Below are positions 675-59,322 of a DNA stretch of 64,000 nt, piece by piece. How positions within the stretch are numbered: the stretch's first letter is position 1; each line of letters opens with the position of its first letter. The notes beneath the pieces are model-generated. The model saw only the letters and a program-made list of their open reading frames with translations. It did no database searches and had not been told where the DNA came from. The DNA lies in the NCBI GenBank assembly GCA_902489575.1, contig CABUAQ010000001.1, positions 146-64,145 of the forward strand. Direction: 5' to 3'. The translations under genes were made by a program, and so were the position numbers. The DNA is from an uncultured bacterium. GTDB lineage: Bacteria > Cyanobacteriota > Vampirovibrionia > Gastranaerophilales > Gastranaerophilaceae.

Positions 675-1370
675 ATGAAATATAAAGGCATAATTTTTGA
701 TTTTAACGGAACATTATATTGGGATTCAGCTAAACACAAACAAACCTGGAGAGAATATTCTAAAATTCTTCGTGGAACACCGTTTACCGATGAAGAAATG
801 ATAAAATATATGTTTGGCAGAACAAATGAACAAATCATAAAATACGCAATAGGAAAGCAGCCTACTCCTGAAATGGTAGAAAAATACGGTCAGGAAAAAG
901 AAGCCCTATATCGAAAAATGAGCGTTGAAGATACTGAAAACTTCCACTTAGCTCAAGGTGCAGAAGAGTTTTTGGATTTTTTAAAAGAAAATGATATTCC
1001 GCGAACAATTGCTACAATGTCAGATTGGGGTAATGTTGAATTCTATATTGAACACTTTAACCTTGGAAAATGGTTTGATATAGATAAAATAGTTTATTCT
1101 GATGGAAAAATCCCGGGAAAACCCGCTCCTGATATATATGAAATTGCAGCAAAAAATTTGGGGCTAGCTCCTCAAGATTGTATTGTAGTAGAAGATGCGA
1201 TATCCGGGATTGACTCTGCTAAAGCTGCAAATATTGGAAAAATTATTGCAATATGTTCAGAAGAACCTCCTGAATTATACAAAAATATTCCCGCTGTTAG
1301 TGGAATTATTCAAAATTTTGAGGATTTTGACAAAACATTGTTCGAGCTTCCCAGCCATAACAAAATCTAA
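675..1370 (+). CDS. HAD-superfamily hydrolase (beta-phosphoglucomutase-like, subfamily IA)
   Basis: HAD motif I 'IIFDFNGTL', later 'GKPAPDIY' and 'VVEDAISGIDSAKAANIG'. 231 aa. Starts right after the upstream stop. Confidence 0.75.
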   Translation: MKYKGIIFDFNGTLYWDSAKHKQTWREYSKILRGTPFTDEEMIKYMFGRTNEQIIKYAIGKQPTPEMVEKYGQEKEALYRKMSVEDTENFHLAQGAEEFLDFLKENDIPRTIATMSDWGNVEFYIEHFNLGKWFDIDKIVYSDGKIPGKPAPDIYEIAAKNLGLAPQDCIVVEDAISGIDSAKAANIGKIIAICSEEPPELYKNIPAVSGIIQNFEDFDKTLFELPSHNKI

Positions 1371-2128
1371 TTCCAAGGATAATCAGAACTAATCTTCCAG
1401 CCATCTTTAAATATAACAGCTGCACAGGCAGTTCCAACTCCAGGTCTATCTCCATTATAAGCAAATGATGTTGCATCCTTGTTACACCCTCGTGGTATAT
1501 TTTTGTCAAGCAATTGTGCTCTTGTATATTGAATATGAGGTACTCCTCCACCTCCATATCCACCTGGATAAATACCATTAGCTATAACAGTAGTTTTATC
1601 TAAAGAGAAATCGTTATTAAACAAATAAAACGAAAAAACATCTTTTCCCATCTGATTTCGAGCACTTTTCCCGTTTATATCAACTATAACAGATATCAGG
1701 TGAAATGCTCCATCATTAACTTTATTAAAGCCAAATACCATTCCATTATTCAATACAATACTATATGGTACAGTGTGTGTCATTCTTACACCTGCAAGAT
1801 CATAATAACCATTAAAATTACCGGTAGTCCAACATCCATCACTCATACGGGTACATACTCTTGCAACATTTAAATATGGCAAAAAATATTTCCGTGCAAA
1901 TTCATCAACTGGCAATGAAGTATCAAAATAAATAGACCCTTCATCTCCTGACTCGGCACTATACATTCTAACCGCCTGAGATAATATTGACAAAGCCTCT
2001 CTAATACCCGAAACCGCAGCACGTTTTTGATACATTGTTATTAAACTTGGAATAGTAAAAGCTGCAATAACTCCAATAATCCCTAATGTTATTAAAACTT
2101 CTGATAAAGTAAAAGCTTTTTTCTTCAT
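1367..2128 (-). CDS. Type IV pilin-like protein (prepilin N-terminal cleavage/methylation domain)
   Basis: N-terminus MKKKA|FTLSEVLITLGIIGVIAAFTIPSLI (class III signal peptide with Glu at +5). C-terminal Cys pair and tail '...CAAVIFKDGWKISSDYPWN' shared with paralogs in this window. Confidence 0.85.
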   Translation of the reverse strand: MKKKAFTLSEVLITLGIIGVIAAFTIPSLITMYQKRAAVSGIREALSILSQAVRMYSAESGDEGSIYFDTSLPVDEFARKYFLPYLNVARVCTRMSDGCWTTGNFNGYYDLAGVRMTHTVPYSIVLNNGMVFGFNKVNDGAFHLISVIVDINGKSARNQMGKDVFSFYLFNNDFSLDKTTVIANGIYPGGYGGGGVPHIQYTRAQLLDKNIPRGCNKDATSFAYNGDRPGVGTACAAVIFKDGWKISSDYPWN

Positions 2129-6713: not shown

Positions 6714-7510
6714 TTACTTAACATTCCAAGGATAATCTCCTTGAATAGTCCAATTATCTCCAACAATTAATGCAGCACACCAATAACCGCTTTTACCCTT
6801 TGCGCACGAGTTACCACTAGAACCTTTAACGACATCACGTTTATAAACTTTTCCTATACTCCAGCTCGCAGGAGTACCTGCATTACCTAACGGCTGCAAT
6901 CCATATTCTGAACTTAGGAAAAATAAAAATGTATCTTTGCCTACTTTATTTGGTTTTGAAATTCCATTAACATCAATCCCTACCCATAAACCGCTTTCAT
7001 TACCAGAATTTAGGTTTGCAGAAACAATAGCACCGTTAATTAAAGAAAAATGATACGCATTTCCCCCTGTATATGTCGTTCCGGAATATCTTGATCCATT
7101 TAAATTTGTCCTTGGAGCAACTTTAAATAACTCCCCGGAAGAATAAGAGTTCATAACTTTTACATAATTTTGAATGTACTTTTCAAAAAAAGCTTTACCT
7201 GATAACGTTGTATCCCAAGAATCAACTTCTCCGTTATCTTCTTGAGATAACTTCATTGCCTGCTGCATAATACTATAAGTCTCTTTTAACTGTGTAACTG
7301 TTTTTCTTTTTTGGTAATTAGCAATTAACCCGGGTATTGTTAATGCAGCAACAACTCCTATAATACCTAATGTAATCAAGACCTCAGATAATGTAAACGC
7401 GTTTAAAGTCCGGGGTAAAAATAGTTTTCTAATCGCGAAACCGCGGTCAAAGTAAGGCTTTAAGAGGTTACCCCCCCCCCGAATTTCTTACTATACTTGA
7501 ATTTTAGCAT
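6714..7510 (-). pseudogene. Type IV pilin-like gene A, frameshifted at a G10 tract as assembled (candidate phase-variable, OFF state)
   Basis: SD AAAGGAGGA plus ATG 7510 opens MLKFKYSKKF, then G10 (7480-7471), then GGGVTS and stop at 7462-7460. The pilin body (..LNA|FTLSEVLITLGIIGVVAALTIP.. to 6714, ending GDYPWNVK) is open only in the frame reached with G11 or G8. The track start at 7379 is a TTG inside the hydrophobic helix. Confidence 0.8.
7471..7480 (-). repeat. Homopolymer G10 on the coding strand (C10 on plus)
   Basis: Direct read: 'ggtta cccccccccc gaatt'. Exactly ten C at 7471-7480. Confidence 0.95.
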
Positions 7511-7607
7511 ATTTATCCTCCTTTATTATTGACAGATATAATATAACATATTATTTGAAATATTACAAACAGAAAATTTATGTTAAAATTAGAAAAAAGG
7601 AGCTCAT

Positions 7608-15422: not shown

Positions 15423-16213
15423 TTATCTATATAAAGAGTCCCAATAACCTTTTGTCTGATCATCCGGATTTTTATCTTTCTTTGCCCAATCATAACAACC
15501 TCGTCCATTATATCGAGATTCGTCTTTATTGTTACAAAGGTTGTTCCAACCACCTGTGGTATAAATAAATAAATCATATCCATATCTGTCTGGACCATTG
15601 TGTGGCCCGTTTGTATCAAAAGTAAACGTTATACCATCGTAAACACCATGATAAAAGTAGGTTATAGAAGTAACAGAAGCTCCACTTTGTAATAAATACA
15701 TCCTGGGCTTATCAACTGTTCTATATTCCATTCCATATACATTTGCATAAGGTAATACTCTTTTAGTGCCTTTGAAATTTGTTACAAACTTTCTCTTCTT
15801 CATCTTATTATACAAATAATCCCAAGTAAGCGGAGTCGCACCTGCAAACTGACTTGCCCAAACGGAATTCACAACACTAAAATATTCTTTATTTTTATCC
15901 CAAGGCTCATTTCGTCTTGCATTAAAATCTGCAAAACTATCAACTGAGAATTCTTCAGATGTCATTTTCATGGCTTGCTGCAATACCGCGTCCATTTTAG
16001 TAAAAGCAATCTTCAATGATTTTCGTTGATAATTATGATACATAATTGGAATAATTATAGCTGCGACAACACCGATAATTCCCAAAGTGATCAAGGTCTC
16101 AGCAAGGGTAAACGCCTGTTTCTTCTTTTTAAACCCGTAAAAAACATTTACGAATAAACTCTTTAAAAGGCTACCCCCCCCCCGAAATTAAAGCTATGAC
16201 TGTGTTTTAACAT
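15423..16213 (-). pseudogene. Type IV pilin-like gene B, frameshifted at a G10 tract as assembled (candidate phase-variable, OFF state)
   Basis: SD AAAGGAGGA plus ATG 16213 opens MLKHSHSFNF, then G10 (16183-16174), then GGGVAF and stop at 16165-16163. The pilin body (..KKKKQA|FTLAETLITLGIIGVVAAIIIP.. to 15423) is open only with G11 or G8. No ATG/GTG/TTG lies between the tract and the FTLAE motif in that frame. Confidence 0.8.
16174..16183 (-). repeat. Homopolymer G10 on the coding strand (C10 on plus)
   Basis: Direct read: 'ggcta cccccccccc gaaatt'. Ten C at 16174-16183. Confidence 0.95.
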
Positions 16214-16231
16214 TTTACATTTCCTCCTTTA

Positions 16232-17152
16232 TTAGTATAATTTATGCCTGCTTTGCAAACGCAATTGAGCAATTTCTTCTCTTATTTCATCAGACTTATT
16301 TGCCAGCCTGTTATACACCTGCGAATTTATTTCCCCTCCAATTAACAGTAAAATTGATGTATAATACAACCAGATCATTAAAATAAAAAATGCACCGATT
16401 GTTCCATATACCAGGTTGTAAGTACTCAAATTATTAACATAAATGGAAAACCCCCACGAACCAACTAACCATAAAGTTGTAAAAAACACCGTTCCCGGCA
16501 GCGCGCTTTTTCGCTTAAAAGCCTCATTTCCCCGCAAATCCGGCAAAATATAATAACTTAAAAATGCCATCACATACAACGCTAAAAACGCGACCGGCCA
16601 GCGAAGTGTCAAAATAGTTATCGCAACCCCCTTTGACATATTAAAATGTGCAACCAAAAACATTACAATAACTTTACCAAAAATAATAATGTTAATAGTC
16701 AAAAATAATACTAAAATATTTACAAAAACCATTAGAAAAGAAAGAATCCTTGTGTAAAGAAAACTTCTGGTTTCTTCAACTTTATAGGCTCTGTTCAAAC
16801 CCTTCAATACAACTGCAACTCCATTTGTTGAAAGCACAAGAGTCGTAATAATACCAATAATCGCTAATAATTGGCCGTGATCAAATATCATAGTTTCAGC
16901 AAGGACTGATTTCAGCAAATTCATAGCCTGTGTCGGCATAATATTTGATAAAACCCTCAAAATTGAATCAAGGTAAGATTTATTACCCATCCAGCCAAAT
17001 ACCGCCATCAAAAACAACATAAACGGGAAAATCCCTACAACAAGCATAAAACCCATTTCAGCAGCCATTCCATAAAAATCATTTTTAATAATTGATTTGA
17101 TAAGCTTCACAAGTGCTCTTATATATTTGTTTTTGATAAGTTTCTTTAACAT
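16232..17152 (-). CDS. YihY/BrkB-family membrane protein
   Basis: 306 aa, 6 or more TM segments, with family-typical 'YGxxGAxxxxMxWLY' near the C-terminus (YGTIGAFFILMIWLYYTS). Confidence 0.75.
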   Translation of the reverse strand: MLKKLIKNKYIRALVKLIKSIIKNDFYGMAAEMGFMLVVGIFPFMLFLMAVFGWMGNKSYLDSILRVLSNIMPTQAMNLLKSVLAETMIFDHGQLLAIIGIITTLVLSTNGVAVVLKGLNRAYKVEETRSFLYTRILSFLMVFVNILVLFLTINIIIFGKVIVMFLVAHFNMSKGVAITILTLRWPVAFLALYVMAFLSYYILPDLRGNEAFKRKSALPGTVFFTTLWLVGSWGFSIYVNNLSTYNLVYGTIGAFFILMIWLYYTSILLLIGGEINSQVYNRLANKSDEIREEIAQLRLQSRHKLY

Positions 17153-44610: not shown

Positions 44611-45285
44611 TTAGTAAGGCATAACCCAGTTATTTTCAATAACAGCAGCTGCACAATGATTAGCATTTCCAGCTTTACACATCGTTATTTTCTGGGCAAG
44701 TGTCAAATCCTCATTAAGAGGTGTAATCTTTCCTTTTCTGGTTATATAGAAACAGAAGTAATCCCTACCCCACATATTTGGACCATCATTAGCGTTAACA
44801 TCCATACAAAAATCAGAAATAACGTCATCTGTTGTATCAGCATAATAAACTTGCTTAGTGACAAGAGAGTACGATATAATACCGCCGTTTTGGAGCAATA
44901 TACTTGTATATCCAGCTCCTACCGGAGTAGCTGTTCCACCATTTAAATTACGATAAGTAATCAATTTTCCCTGCTCATCCTGAGTTGTTTTCCAACAATC
45001 TTTTGCGGAATCAGCACAAGTTTTAGCAACCGAGAAATTTGAATTTGTCAGTAATGTTGCAGGATTTTTAAAATCTGTTTCCAATAAATTTTTTGTTTTA
45101 TGCGCAATAAGCTGATCAAAAATAAGTTGTTGAACCGAACCTACCGTACTTTTTAACTGAGTTGTCAGCAATCTGTTATTTATAGAAATTAACAAACTTG
45201 GTACTGACAAGGCAGCAATAGCACCAACAATACCCAATGCTACCAATAATTCTGTTAACGTAAATGCATTCTTATTATTTATCAT
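44611..45285 (-). CDS. Type IV pilin-like protein
   Basis: Start at ATG 45285 (SD AAAGGAG): MINNKNA|FTLTELLVALGIVGAIAALSVPSLL. C-terminal Cys pair '..MCKAGNANHCAAAVIENNWVMPY'. Confidence 0.85.
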   Translation of the reverse strand: MINNKNAFTLTELLVALGIVGAIAALSVPSLLISINNRLLTTQLKSTVGSVQQLIFDQLIAHKTKNLLETDFKNPATLLTNSNFSVAKTCADSAKDCWKTTQDEQGKLITYRNLNGGTATPVGAGYTSILLQNGGIISYSLVTKQVYYADTTDDVISDFCMDVNANDGPNMWGRDYFCFYITRKGKITPLNEDLTLAQKITMCKAGNANHCAAAVIENNWVMPY

Positions 45286-45295
45286 AAAAACTCCT

Positions 45296-45988
45296 TTAAT
45301 TATCATTTACCAAATAGTTCGGATCAAATCCTGTCAACACCGCCAGTGTATAACAAGCATAGGGTTTACCGTTTGCTTTGCAATCTGCACGATTTACTGC
45401 AATATCCTCACTGTGCTCAAGATGATCCCCAGTGTGGATTCCATTATTTAAATCGTTCTCATCAGACAATTCCAACTCAAAAAGATCAACCCCGGCAATA
45501 TTTGGTTCTTTATTACCGTTCAAATCAATATTGAAAAGTACGGCTTTCCTCCCATTATACTTTGCACTTGATGCAGATCTGGGTGCTAACAATCCAATAC
45601 CTACCCCCGTTTTTAATAAAACCGAAGCATTATACGTTCCAGTACCGATGCCACTTACGGCAGTTCGATCAAAGTTTTTATACCCTCCCTCCGGAAAATA
45701 TATTAGTGTTCCGCTGCCCTGACCATCTACTACATCAAACTTGTTAAGAAACTTTTCCGGATTTTTAAATATATCAGTATCTGAAAGCTTTCTGGCGCCT
45801 GTTTGTATAAGCTCATTTTGAACAAGATCATTCAAATTTGACACAGTTCCCTGTAACAACGCCATTGATGACCTATTTTGAATATCTTTTATTACCCCTG
45901 CTATTACCAATGCTGCAACCGTTCCAATAACAGTTAATGCTATAAGAACCTCAGATAGCGTAAAACCATCTTTTTTTATCTTAATCAT
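45296..45988 (-). CDS. Type IV pilin-like protein (canonical Gly at -1)
   Basis: MIKIKKDG|FTLSEVLIALTVIGTVAALVIAGVI. Immediately upstream of 44611..45285. Confidence 0.85.
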   Translation of the reverse strand: MIKIKKDGFTLSEVLIALTVIGTVAALVIAGVIKDIQNRSSMALLQGTVSNLNDLVQNELIQTGARKLSDTDIFKNPEKFLNKFDVVDGQGSGTLIYFPEGGYKNFDRTAVSGIGTGTYNASVLLKTGVGIGLLAPRSASSAKYNGRKAVLFNIDLNGNKEPNIAGVDLFELELSDENDLNNGIHTGDHLEHSEDIAVNRADCKANGKPYACYTLAVLTGFDPNYLVNDN

Positions 45989-46933: not shown

Positions 46934-47938
46934 ATGACAGTAAAATTTGAAGGACAAGACAGACGTCAAGCTACTTTGAAAAAAGTTTTACCTGAATACG
47001 GTCTAAAAAACTTGGAAGAAGCTCGCGAATTATGCTTATCAAAAGGAATTGATGTTGATGCAATCGTTAAAGGTATTCAGCCTATCGCATTTGATAATGC
47101 TTCTTGGGCATATACTTTGGGTTGTGCTATTGCAATTAAAAAAGGCCTTAAAACTGCTGCTGAAGTTGCTGAGGCTATTGGTTTAGGTTTACAAGCGTTT
47201 GCCGTACCGGGCTCTGTTGGTGACAGAAGGCAAGTTGGTATCGGTCACGGTAACCTTGGTGCAATGCTATTAAGAGAAGAAACTAAATGTTTTTGTTTCT
47301 TAGCCGGTCACGAATCTTTCGCTGCTGCTGAAGGTGCTATCGGTATTGCCAGAAACGCTAACAAAGTTAGAAAAGAACCTTTAAGAGTTATCTTAAACGG
47401 TTTGGGTAAAGACGCTGCATACGTTATTGCAAGAATTAACGGTTTTACAGCTGTTGAAACTGAATATGATTACAAAACCGGTGAATTAAAAATTAAAAAA
47501 GAAATACCGTTCTCAGATGGAGAAAGAGCTAAAGTTAAATGCTATGGTGTTGATGATGTTAACGAAGGTGTTGCAGTAATGATTCATGAAGGCGTTGATG
47601 TATCTATCACCGGTAACTCAACTAACCCGACTCGTTTCCAACACCCTGTTGCAGGAACTTACAAAAAATGGTGCTGGGAAAACGGTAGAAAATACTTCTC
47701 AGTAGCATCAGGCGGTGGTACAGGTAGAACTCTTCATCCGGATAACGTTGCTGCTGGTCCTGCTTCTTACGGTATGACAGATACTATGGGCAGAATGCAC
47801 GGTGATGCACAATTCGCAGGTTCTTCTTCAGTTCCTGCTCACGTAGAAATGATGGGCGTTATCGGTATGGGTAACAACCCTATGGTAGGTGCTACAGTTG
47901 CATGTGCCGTTGCTGTTTCTCAAGCTATGAGCAAATAG
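46934..47938 (+). CDS. GGGtGRT-family protein (function unknown)
   Basis: Contains the eponymous 'ASGGGTGRTLHPDN' motif. 334 aa. Follows a NifU-like gene, as I recall for this family. Confidence 0.8.
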   Translation: MTVKFEGQDRRQATLKKVLPEYGLKNLEEARELCLSKGIDVDAIVKGIQPIAFDNASWAYTLGCAIAIKKGLKTAAEVAEAIGLGLQAFAVPGSVGDRRQVGIGHGNLGAMLLREETKCFCFLAGHESFAAAEGAIGIARNANKVRKEPLRVILNGLGKDAAYVIARINGFTAVETEYDYKTGELKIKKEIPFSDGERAKVKCYGVDDVNEGVAVMIHEGVDVSITGNSTNPTRFQHPVAGTYKKWCWENGRKYFSVASGGGTGRTLHPDNVAAGPASYGMTDTMGRMHGDAQFAGSSSVPAHVEMMGVIGMGNNPMVGATVACAVAVSQAMSK

Positions 47939-58701: not shown

Positions 58702-59322
58702 CTAGAATTTAATTGGATAATCGCTCTTAAATTCCCATTGATCATTTTGCAACAGCCTGGTACAACTGGATCTATTATTTACACATTGGTCTATCATAGC
58801 TTGACGGGAAGTAGCTTGGCTAGTTATACCAGATCCATACACCCCAAAAAATATATCCTCACTGCCAAAGTAGTCTCTTCTACCGTCTTTATTGAAACAA
58901 TATAAGAATCTATACTGATCGTACCCCTCAGAATTAGGTGATTTATCACCGTTTACATCGTAAATAACATCCAAACATCCACCGGTAAAAAAAGTTCCCA
59001 GCTTACTTCCGTCTTTATAATATACCTGCTTTGTCGCTGTATCCACAAACTGATGCCCCATATACGGATCAATATTTTCCATATACCAATCAAAGCCATT
59101 ACCCTGGGTCGGAAGAATCATATCTTTAAATGAACCTTTATCCATCTGCATATCAAGCACCGCATTATCCATTTTGCTGTAGAAATTCTTCAATTTTGCC
59201 GAATATTCTTTCTTAACTCTGTTATAATTCAATGTAGGAATTGTCAGTGCTGCAACTACACCGACAATTGTCATTGTTATCATAACTTCCGCTAAAGTAA
59301 ATGCCCATTTTTTTTGCATCAT
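58702..59322 (-). CDS. Type IV pilin-like protein
   Basis: MMQKKWA|FTLAEVMITMTIVGVVAALTIPTL. C-terminal 'DQCVNNRSSCTRLLQNDQWEFKSDYPIKF' shares the Cys-loop and W..DYP tail of the family. Confidence 0.85.
   Translation of the reverse strand: MMQKKWAFTLAEVMITMTIVGVVAALTIPTLNYNRVKKEYSAKLKNFYSKMDNAVLDMQMDKGSFKDMILPTQGNGFDWYMENIDPYMGHQFVDTATKQVYYKDGSKLGTFFTGGCLDVIYDVNGDKSPNSEGYDQYRFLYCFNKDGRRDYFGSEDIFFGVYGSGITSQATSRQAMIDQCVNNRSSCTRLLQNDQWEFKSDYPIKF

Follow-up and report, generated by a model that had tools for sequence, protein, structure and literature searches.

A gene for a pilin-like protein, here called locus B, lies on the minus strand of a 64,000-nucleotide stretch of DNA (the window) from an uncultured bacterium of the Gastranaerophilaceae (assembly GCA_902489575.1, contig CABUAQ010000001.1), and its reading frame is interrupted shortly after the start codon by a run of ten G residues (G10). 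We consider it probable, at about 0.75, that locus B is a simple-sequence contingency locus, in which slipped-strand mispairing within the coding region of the prepilin leader gives rise to phase variation. In this regard, it has three of the features by which such loci are recognised: an overlong tract in the 5′ coding sequence, a product that is switched by the length of the tract, and a length that is polymorphic between populations, as judged from consensus assemblies. Moreover, locus B is one copy of a lineage-wide, apparently undescribed set of mostly-OFF switches on the pilin-like family of the Gastranaerophilales. Its elements are listed below, where ON and OFF stand for tract lengths that do or do not join the leader to the pilin body.

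16222 to 16230, minus strand: strong Shine-Dalgarno (SD) sequence AAAGGAGGA of the leader open reading frame (ORF), read directly.
16211 to 16213, minus strand: leader ATG, the predicted start of the prepilin in the ON state, read directly.
16174 to 16183, minus strand: G10 homopolymeric tract, the putative frame switch (C10 on the plus strand).
16163 to 16213, minus strand: leader ORF at G10, the OFF product of 16 residues, MLKHSHSFNFGGGVAF followed by TAA.
16113 to 16175, minus strand: post-tract leader in the body frame, GSLLKSLFVNVFYGFKKKKQA, without a start codon.
15426 to 16112, minus strand: mature pilin-like protein of 229 residues, beginning FTLAETLITLGIIGVVAA; stop at 15423-15425.

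On the minus strand the stop codon of a yihY-like gene (TAA, 16234-16232) is followed by 18 nt that contain AAAGGAGGA and then by the leader ATG, the spacing given by the original prediction, which had been made from the letters of the window alone. The leader reads ATG TTA AAA CAC AGT CAT AGC TTT AAT TTC GGGGGGGGGG TAG CCT TTT AAA G, that is, ten codons (MLKHSHSFNF) and then G10, and the post-tract sequence TAGCCTTTTAAAG contains the stops of both OFF frames. That prediction had also named ATG 16213, MLKHSHSFNF and G10 at 16174-16183, all of which the sequence bears out, and had assigned a frame to each tract length; this frame logic was reproduced when the tract was rewritten in silico from G7 to G13. 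With G10 the frame continues as GGGVAF to the TAA at 16165-16163, and with G9 the TAG is met immediately, leaving 13 residues; long products appear at G8 (262 residues) and G11 (263 residues) only, whose frame reads GGGGSLLKSLFVNVFYGFKKKKQA↓FTLAETLITLGIIGVVAA... down to the stop at 15425-15423 (↓ marks the predicted cleavage site), and G7, G9, G10 and G12 yield products of 13-16 residues. An overlooked canonical start in the body frame, which would have spoken against the prediction, was looked for and none was found: between the tract and the first residue (F) of the FTLAE motif there is no ATG, GTG or TTG, nor any of the rarer starts ATT, ATC, ATA and CTG. The body frame is shut by a TAA immediately upstream of the tract and its first canonical start is a TTG within the hydrophobic helix, ATG 16213 being the sole start that gives the full protein at any tract length. 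The proposal that control is genetic or translational rather than exerted by a promoter is supported by this arrangement, since the intact gene can be translated only after a frame change at the 5′ leader tract.

The arrangement at locus B is well beyond chance. In the whole window, with its 34% G+C, only two runs of G or C exceed six bases, both being exactly ten long (7471-7480 and 16174-16183), and the next longest are three runs of six; the number of runs of ten or more expected in the window lies between 0.004 (independent bases) and about 0.014 (first-order Markov model). The other long run belongs to a second pilin-like gene, locus A, with the following elements.

7471 to 7480, minus strand: G10 tract of locus A, in the same cassette (SD at 7516-7524, ATG at 7508-7510).
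6717 to 7472, minus strand: body frame of locus A, comprising the post-tract leader and a mature pilin-like protein of 227 residues (F at 7397; stop at 6714-6716).

The leader of locus A is MLKFKYSKKF-G10-TAACCTCTTAAAG, and its protein matches DUF6613 and N_methyl. Both loci have the same leader plan of SD, ATG and ten codons, and both tracts share the flanks TTC-G10-TARCCTYTTAAAG; DNA identity between the two loci is 77% across the cassette region, compared with an overall protein identity of 29%.

The body behind the tract of locus B is that of a pilin-like protein. It matches PF07963 with 24.5 bits (cut-off 21.2) and TIGR02532 with 18.3 bits (cut-off 16.3), its N-terminal region alone weakly matches models of ComGC/D/E, GspG and PilA, and it carries the N-terminal cleavage and methylation motif [GA]↓F-x-x-x-E followed by a hydrophobic helix, here as A↓FTLAETLITLGIIGVVAAIIIP. 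An AlphaFold2 (AF2) model built with 67 homologues (predicted local distance difference test, pLDDT, 92.9; predicted template modelling score, pTM, 0.86) shows a 52-residue N-terminal helix (model residues 9-60) and then an alpha/beta head of helices and a beta-sheet, which is the 'lollipop' plan of pilins. A Foldseek search of this model against the PDB gave no match at E <1, the best pilin match being 8tum_a at E = 4.4, in a comparison that the long helix may dominate; the globular fold of the family may be structurally uncharacterised.

One explanation for a gene out of frame is that it is dying, the frameshift of a dead pilin paralogue merely happening to fall in a G run. Such a decaying pseudogene would account for the lack of an alternative start at locus B and for a syntenic relative (contigs L211/L212) with a shrunken G8 tract and a stop before the body, but the body of locus B is intact and every residue that is invariant in the family is present. 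Against three orthologues (L210, L211 and L213; 69-75% identity), the ratio of non-synonymous to synonymous substitution rates (dN/dS) of the mature part is 0.12-0.16, so that the body is under purifying selection and the gene is not decaying. Furthermore, the arrangement occurs twice in the window and in more than 160 loci with an open frame, and L211 itself retains an intact body with an internal TTG start. We find a pseudogene scarcely credible on these grounds, and the decay of the body that the original prediction had regarded as fatal to itself is opposed by the invariant residues and the dN/dS.

The same design recurs throughout the lineage. A family alignment scanned against one genome per GTDB species gave at least 569 confirmed relatives, of which 80 were kept, and almost all of these come from Candidatus Gastranaerophilales or Melainabacteria metagenome-assembled genomes (MAGs) of the gut, old mislabelled bins such as 'Clostridium sp. 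CAG:768' and 'Brachyspira sp. CAG:484' included. In 920 kb of related loci, runs of G or C of 6, 7, 8, 9, 10, 11, 12 and 13 bases were found 30, 1, 3, 11, 45, 4, 4 and 1 times, respectively, and the modal tract length is exactly 10 (45 of 68). Nearly all the long runs are preceded by an SD-ATG with 6-12 codons (about 28 in occasional cases) and followed by a pilin-like gene on the same strand, and an SD-like site also precedes the leader ATG in the cassettes of the relatives. Among the 99 pilin-like genes with enough upstream sequence in representative genomes of Gastranaerophilales and Melainabacteria, 55 have a G or C run of at least 8 within 600 nt upstream (46 G, 9 C) and 30 have an ordinary short leader. 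In this line, a scan of public metagenome contigs for the pattern G8, 50-80 nt, FTL[AS]E... returned at least 120 contigs, many of them from named human-gut assemblies, and added at least 115 further loci in 116 distinct sequence clusters.

In a second class of genes, the coding strand has C instead of G in the tract (M....RIA-PPP-...G↓FTLAE). This poly-C version consists of an SD-ATG, M....(R/E)(I/V)A, a C10 tract translated as Pro, a short spacer and G↓FTLAE, with copies in L005 (minus strand, ~1516), L013 (5990), L066 (5951), L069 (2443), L008 (5902) and L018 (5900); all the copies seen have C10 and each is one base short of the ON frame.

Several lines of evidence indicate that ribosomes are meant to read through the tract. 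In about 160 loci no stop interrupts the body frame between the tract and the mature N-terminus, even where 340-540 nt with inserted repeats separate the two, and a frame kept open over such distances in A+T-rich DNA is not explained by chance. The leader frame ends two codons past the tract in 65 of 111 OFF loci, and of the two OFF-frame stops the later one comes after a median of 5 codons; in the controls, the corresponding frames within the bodies, the median is 13. In the cassette type of the window, the 13-mer TAACCTCTTAAAG encodes a stop for G9 (TAA), a stop for G10 (..T TAA) and Asn-Leu-Leu-Lys in the ON frame. The ON-frame peptides are GGGNLLK in locus A, L040 and L084, GGGSLLK in locus B and GGGNPLK in L210, and another subfamily has GGGNLEL..., encoded by different DNA. 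Altogether, the reading frames argue that translation through the tract is selected. Conservation of the post-tract DNA as a binding site for a protein or an RNA was considered and rejected, the OFF-frame stops together with the conserved GGGNLLK/GGGNLEL peptide being the better explanation.

Translation through the tract would be dispensable if the short leader ORF were a regulatory upstream ORF (uORF) and the pilin were made from an internal start by coupling or re-initiation. This agrees with the 52 of 162 relatives that have an in-frame ATG, GTG or TTG between the tract and the F, and with L062, L074, L076 and L082, where the body possesses an ATG of its own and the frame does not run through from the cassette into it. 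On the other hand, no canonical start is present there in 110 of the 162 loci or in loci A and B, and a frame open over hundreds of bases would be left unexplained, so that we give the uORF almost no weight.

The post-tract leaders of the relatives show further peculiarities. In L213 (1480-1730), the stretch between the tract and the mature N-terminus holds inserted small repeats (..HTELVSESK..RFFASAQNDG.., ..RHAELDSASH..), and repeat insertions also occur in the leaders of L028, L063, L050, L022, L041 and L084. The frame remains open across them, giving predicted leaders of up to ~119 residues inside which gene callers place the start (e.g. P0002). A search for the exact motif of the inserted repeat found almost nothing, since the copies are too variable. 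In L211 (1440-1527), L125, P0079, P0094 and P0119 the junction between leader and mature part is duplicated 5′ of the true N-terminus ('FTLAEGATHV....(A/G)↓FTLAE'), which looks like recurrent insertion or duplication at the sequence coding for the cleavage site. In L003 (9986-10030) and L004 (1-40) a second ATG in another frame (aATGtcGGG) stands directly before the tract, from which gene callers annotate an 'in-frame' MSGGGNLEL..., the SD-linked ATG 15 nt upstream being out of frame. Many database N-termini of the pilin-like family (MSGGG.., MCRSVYARSAARGGG..) are probably artefacts of start calling. A two-start design of the kind suggested by the aATGtcGGG of L003 was dropped as a general feature, because it is not shared by the cassettes in general and lacks an SD at a working distance.

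Tract length differs between DNA from different sources. Locus B has G10 in the window and G9 in Logan contig L001 (run SRR32969599), which encodes an identical YihY protein sequence, and two other assemblies have contigs, L002 and L089, that terminate within the tract or at it. Similarly, locus A has G10 in the window and in L088 (assembly ERZ19692824) and G9 in L087 (assembly ERR13988495), and contig L086 starts inside its tract. Among the metagenome clusters with more than one member, two of nine differ in tract length, and pairs of ON and OFF alleles were found with flanks that are identical or differ by one base: L184 (G10, ON) against L173 (G11, OFF), and L107 (G11, ON) against L105 (G12, OFF). 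The orthologues of locus B add to this picture. The syntenic L210 has MLKLNYRLKF-G10 (ON class G8/G11; mature part 69% identical), L213/L215 have MLEFNNNKKI-G9 (ON class G8/G11), and in the syntenic L211/L212 the G8 tract is uncoupled from the body by the stop that lies between them. Loci A and B and the coupled orthologues are OFF in every observation.

Homopolymers are error-prone, several of the supporting contigs have low coverage and contigs break at the tracts, all of which could mean that G10 is an under-call of the homopolymer, the real tract being G11 and the gene in frame. Such a sequencing or assembly error is very improbable: at both loci the independent assemblies show G10 or G9 and not once G11, calls of G11 to G14 at other places speak against a cap at 10, and the assemblies come from many projects whose contig names point to different assemblers (SPAdes NODE, k127/k141, IDBA scaffolds). 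Moreover, a miscall in one direction cannot produce loci that need one base more and loci that need one base less in near-equal numbers. In three other assemblies, contigs break off inside the tracts of the window or at most 9 nt away from them (L001 end, L002 end, L086 start, L089 start), a suggestive observation that is consistent with length heterogeneity or with poor read-through at the tracts.

A number of points weigh against phase variation at the DNA level, among them the rarity of the ON state. Counted from the SD-ATG, the consensus is ON at only 16 of 162 loci (9.9%; binomial P = 3e-12 against 1/3), and loci specifically avoid their ON length, a bias that is not predicted by simple neutral switching. 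Moreover, the pair L173 and L184 has a coverage of only ~3x, and consensus assemblies, some of them of low coverage, cannot show heterogeneity within a population or reversibility. The ON allele (G11 or G8) of loci A and B was not seen in the few other assemblies, which have G9 or G10. Likewise, a Pfam scan of ten neighbouring proteins of the window found no prepilin peptidase or pilus machinery, and leaders of 34 to 119 residues exceed those of characterised type IV pilins.

The OFF bias is not simply a preference for length 10. Loci whose ON length is 8 or 11 stand at G10 in 60 cases and at G11 in 5, and loci whose ON length is 10 or 13 stand at G11 in 34 cases, at G9 in 13 and at G10 in 8; overall, 79 loci need one base more (+1) and 67 one base less (−1). 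Two readings of this bias can be put forward. In the first, ON cells would be a minority in every sampled population, giving a default-OFF repertoire as with the opa genes of Neisseria, perhaps because expressed pilins are targeted by phage or immunoglobulin A. In the second, the DNA would be meant to be OFF and expression would come from slippage at the RNA level.

Recoding of this second kind supposes that selection holds the DNA one base out of frame and that RNA polymerase slips on the G10/C10 template (transcriptional realignment), or the ribosome on the Gly or Pro codons of the homopolymer, to give a low, steady level of pilin, which would set a low stoichiometry of many minor pilins and could coexist with switching at the DNA level. 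It would explain why 90% of the loci are OFF in the consensus whichever length is ON, why bodies that are OFF remain under purifying selection, and why the syntenic orthologue L210 also stands at G10, one base short; the modal length of exactly 10 also fits, ten being close to the number of base pairs in the RNA-DNA hybrid of an elongating polymerase. True ON alleles that differ from OFF alleles only in the tract exist in the DNA, however, and the near equality of +1 and −1 loci leaves no single programmed direction. Folding of both leaders and post-tract segments gave no stable structure after the tract beyond that of shuffled sequences (z −0.6 to −1.2), Rfam had no match in the region of locus B at E up to 1, and no family reached its gathering score anywhere in the window, not even tRNA. 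A frameshift stimulator or an SD-sequestering hairpin formed through CCTCTT/CCTTTT after the tract was dropped for the same reason, its folding lying within the shuffles. The fixed direction and the stimulatory structure or SD-like element of a programmed −1 frameshift site are thus missing; G10 does provide the homopolymer of at least nine at a frame junction that marks a transcriptional slippage site, the second mark of which is heterogeneity of the RNA exceeding that of the DNA. To our knowledge, documented bacterial slippage sites are runs of A or T. We hold recoding at the RNA level, which may include transcriptional slippage yielding both +1 and −1 products, to be unlikely, although it is the main live alternative or addition to phase variation. 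A little less probable again is a stricter version in which OFF is the working state: selection would hold the tracts one base out, slippage of RNA polymerase or ribosome on G10/C10 would dose dozens of pilin subunits genome-wide, and ON alleles in the DNA would be rare, counter-selected over-producers.

Phase variation of locus B, the reading that we prefer, would proceed as follows. The locus would be transcribed, probably together with nrnA and yihY, the latter being the upstream neighbour:

16232 to 17152, minus strand: gene of the yihY/BrkB family, ending 18 nt before the leader ATG.

The order nrnA-yihY-pilin-prfA-ylxR-infB is kept in L210 and L211, and from nrnA-yihY to locus B no terminator-like or promoter-like site was found on the minus strand near the start, in a scan that is uninformative there, so that cotranscription with nrnA-yihY is plausible. 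Ribosomes would initiate at the SD-linked ATG 16213 and translate ten codons before they enter the tract, which would be read as Gly codons. At G10 or G9 they would meet a stop within 0-3 codons and no pilin would be made, and at G11 or G8 they would read through a leader of 34 or 33 residues into the 229-residue mature protein. To judge from the family to which the protein belongs, prepilin peptidase would then cut at A↓FTLAE and remove the leader with its Gly run; since the leader is discarded, the tract would cost the mature protein nothing and the switch would leave no scar on a subunit presumably displayed at the surface. Slipped-strand mispairing during replication would add or remove single G residues within a clone, leaving a minority of cells ON at a rate and with a reversibility that we infer from the G/C tracts of similar length in Campylobacter jejuni (PMC3401435). 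With many independent switches across the pilin-like family, the system would be OFF by default and most copies would be silent in most cells at any time.

As to the origin of the arrangement, the original prediction had proposed that a leader ORF with its G tract was grafted onto an ordinary short-leader pilin gene. Comparisons support this idea and do not prove it. The segment FKKKKQA↓FTL of locus B resembles the short leader of the following paralogue.

1367 to 2128, minus strand: comparator pilin-like gene without a tract, its leader being of the ordinary short kind (MKKKA↓FTLSE).

Many relatives retain an internal ATG 12-39 nt before the F, behind the same cassette, and in L062, L074, L076, L082 and L211 the frame no longer runs on from the cassette into such a gene. 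Moreover, many genes with unalignable head domains share 75-91% identity over the segment from SD to tract. These data support, without proving it, a modular leader cassette that was joined to ordinary pilin genes and has since been homogenised or spread between paralogues.

The principle is a classical one. In Neisseria, pilC has a G tract in the region coding for the signal peptide and the opa genes have CTCTT repeats in the region coding for the leader peptide (PMC5354566). The pilC genes of Neisseria gonorrhoeae and N. meningitidis resemble locus B in that a homo-G tract in a cleaved N-terminal signal switches a pilus-associated protein and leaves its mature part untouched (PMC5354566). 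PilC, however, is a large tip adhesin with a Sec-type signal and one or two copies, whereas the tracts described here lie in the class III (prepilin) leader of pilin-like subunits, affect about half of an expanded paralogue family in an unrelated and uncultured phylum and occur with G and C polarity. In their organisation the opa genes are closer, as a multigene surface family in which every copy has its own repeat in the leader region, is transcribed and is mostly out of frame, with none to several expressed per cell (PMC5354566). They differ in that the repeat is a pentamer instead of a homopolymer, the products are outer-membrane beta-barrels and the copies number about 11, against the 55 tract-bearing genes among 99 here. 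The polyG/C loci of C. jejuni are similar for their homopolymers of 8-13 within frames, their sharp modal length and their number (~29 per genome), and that modal length is attributed to a mutational pattern of insertions at G8 and deletions at G11 (PMC3401435). There the mode is 9 instead of 10, and most of the genes encode enzymes that modify glycans, the place of the tract varying from gene to gene. In the loci described here, the consensus is nearly always OFF and the ON length is avoided.

A different kind of precedent is found in programmed slippage and −1 frameshifting, as in dnaX, insertion sequence (IS) elements and mxiE of Shigella, where a homopolymer of at least nine sits at the junction of overlapping frames and a stop of the zero frame follows soon after. 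Those sites consist of A/T runs or of X XXY YYZ heptamers, act in a fixed direction and often have a stimulatory structure, whereas the family of locus B needs +1 or −1 about equally often and no structure was found. What departs from the classical pattern in the present case is its scale, the position of the tract, the lineage that carries it and the fact that the ON state is avoided without an evident explanation. We found no report of such a system in the literature on Gastranaerophilales/Melainabacteria, pilin leaders and homopolymeric tracts, in a search of limited coverage that an earlier description could have escaped.

Gastranaerophilales are common, uncultured members of the gut microbiota of humans and animals, and their surface biology is almost unknown. 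The family described here would give them a large, combinatorial and mostly silent repertoire of pilin-like surface proteins, each gene with its own hypermutable switch hidden in a discarded leader. This would be a system of the immune-, phage- or niche-evasion type, seen hitherto mainly in the pathogens Neisseria, Campylobacter and Haemophilus, in a commensal relative of the cyanobacteria. The tracts also have practical consequences, as they break assemblies and are a cause of fragmented MAGs, and gene callers truncate or mis-start about half of the pilin-like family. The ON or OFF state should be readable from metagenomic reads, and the depletion of ON alleles would point either to selection against expression or to recoding at the RNA level.

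The window contains six pilin-like genes, two with the tract and four with an ordinary short leader (MKKKA↓FTL and similar), which are dispersed amid housekeeping genes. Besides the comparator, the short-leader genes without a tract are these.

44611 to 45306: pilin-like gene with a short leader.
45296 to 45988: pilin-like gene with a short leader.
58702 to 59322: pilin-like gene with a short leader.

Exact-sequence look-ups of the truncated ORF of locus B and of the gene divergent from locus A returned nothing on record, and other assemblies of both loci were found through neighbouring genes. In one of these (ERR14033850, contig L085, 739-1437), a different pilin-like gene stands where the window has locus A (6714-7510). 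It lacks a tract, its leader being an ordinary one (MKKNLG↓FTLAE), and the protein sequence of the neighbouring glyQ is identical; the pilin slot at locus A thus appears, from this comparison, to be exchangeable between strains. Finally, a protein of the GGGtGRT family (PF14057) is encoded at 46934-47938, beside the two adjacent pilin-like genes at 44611-45988.

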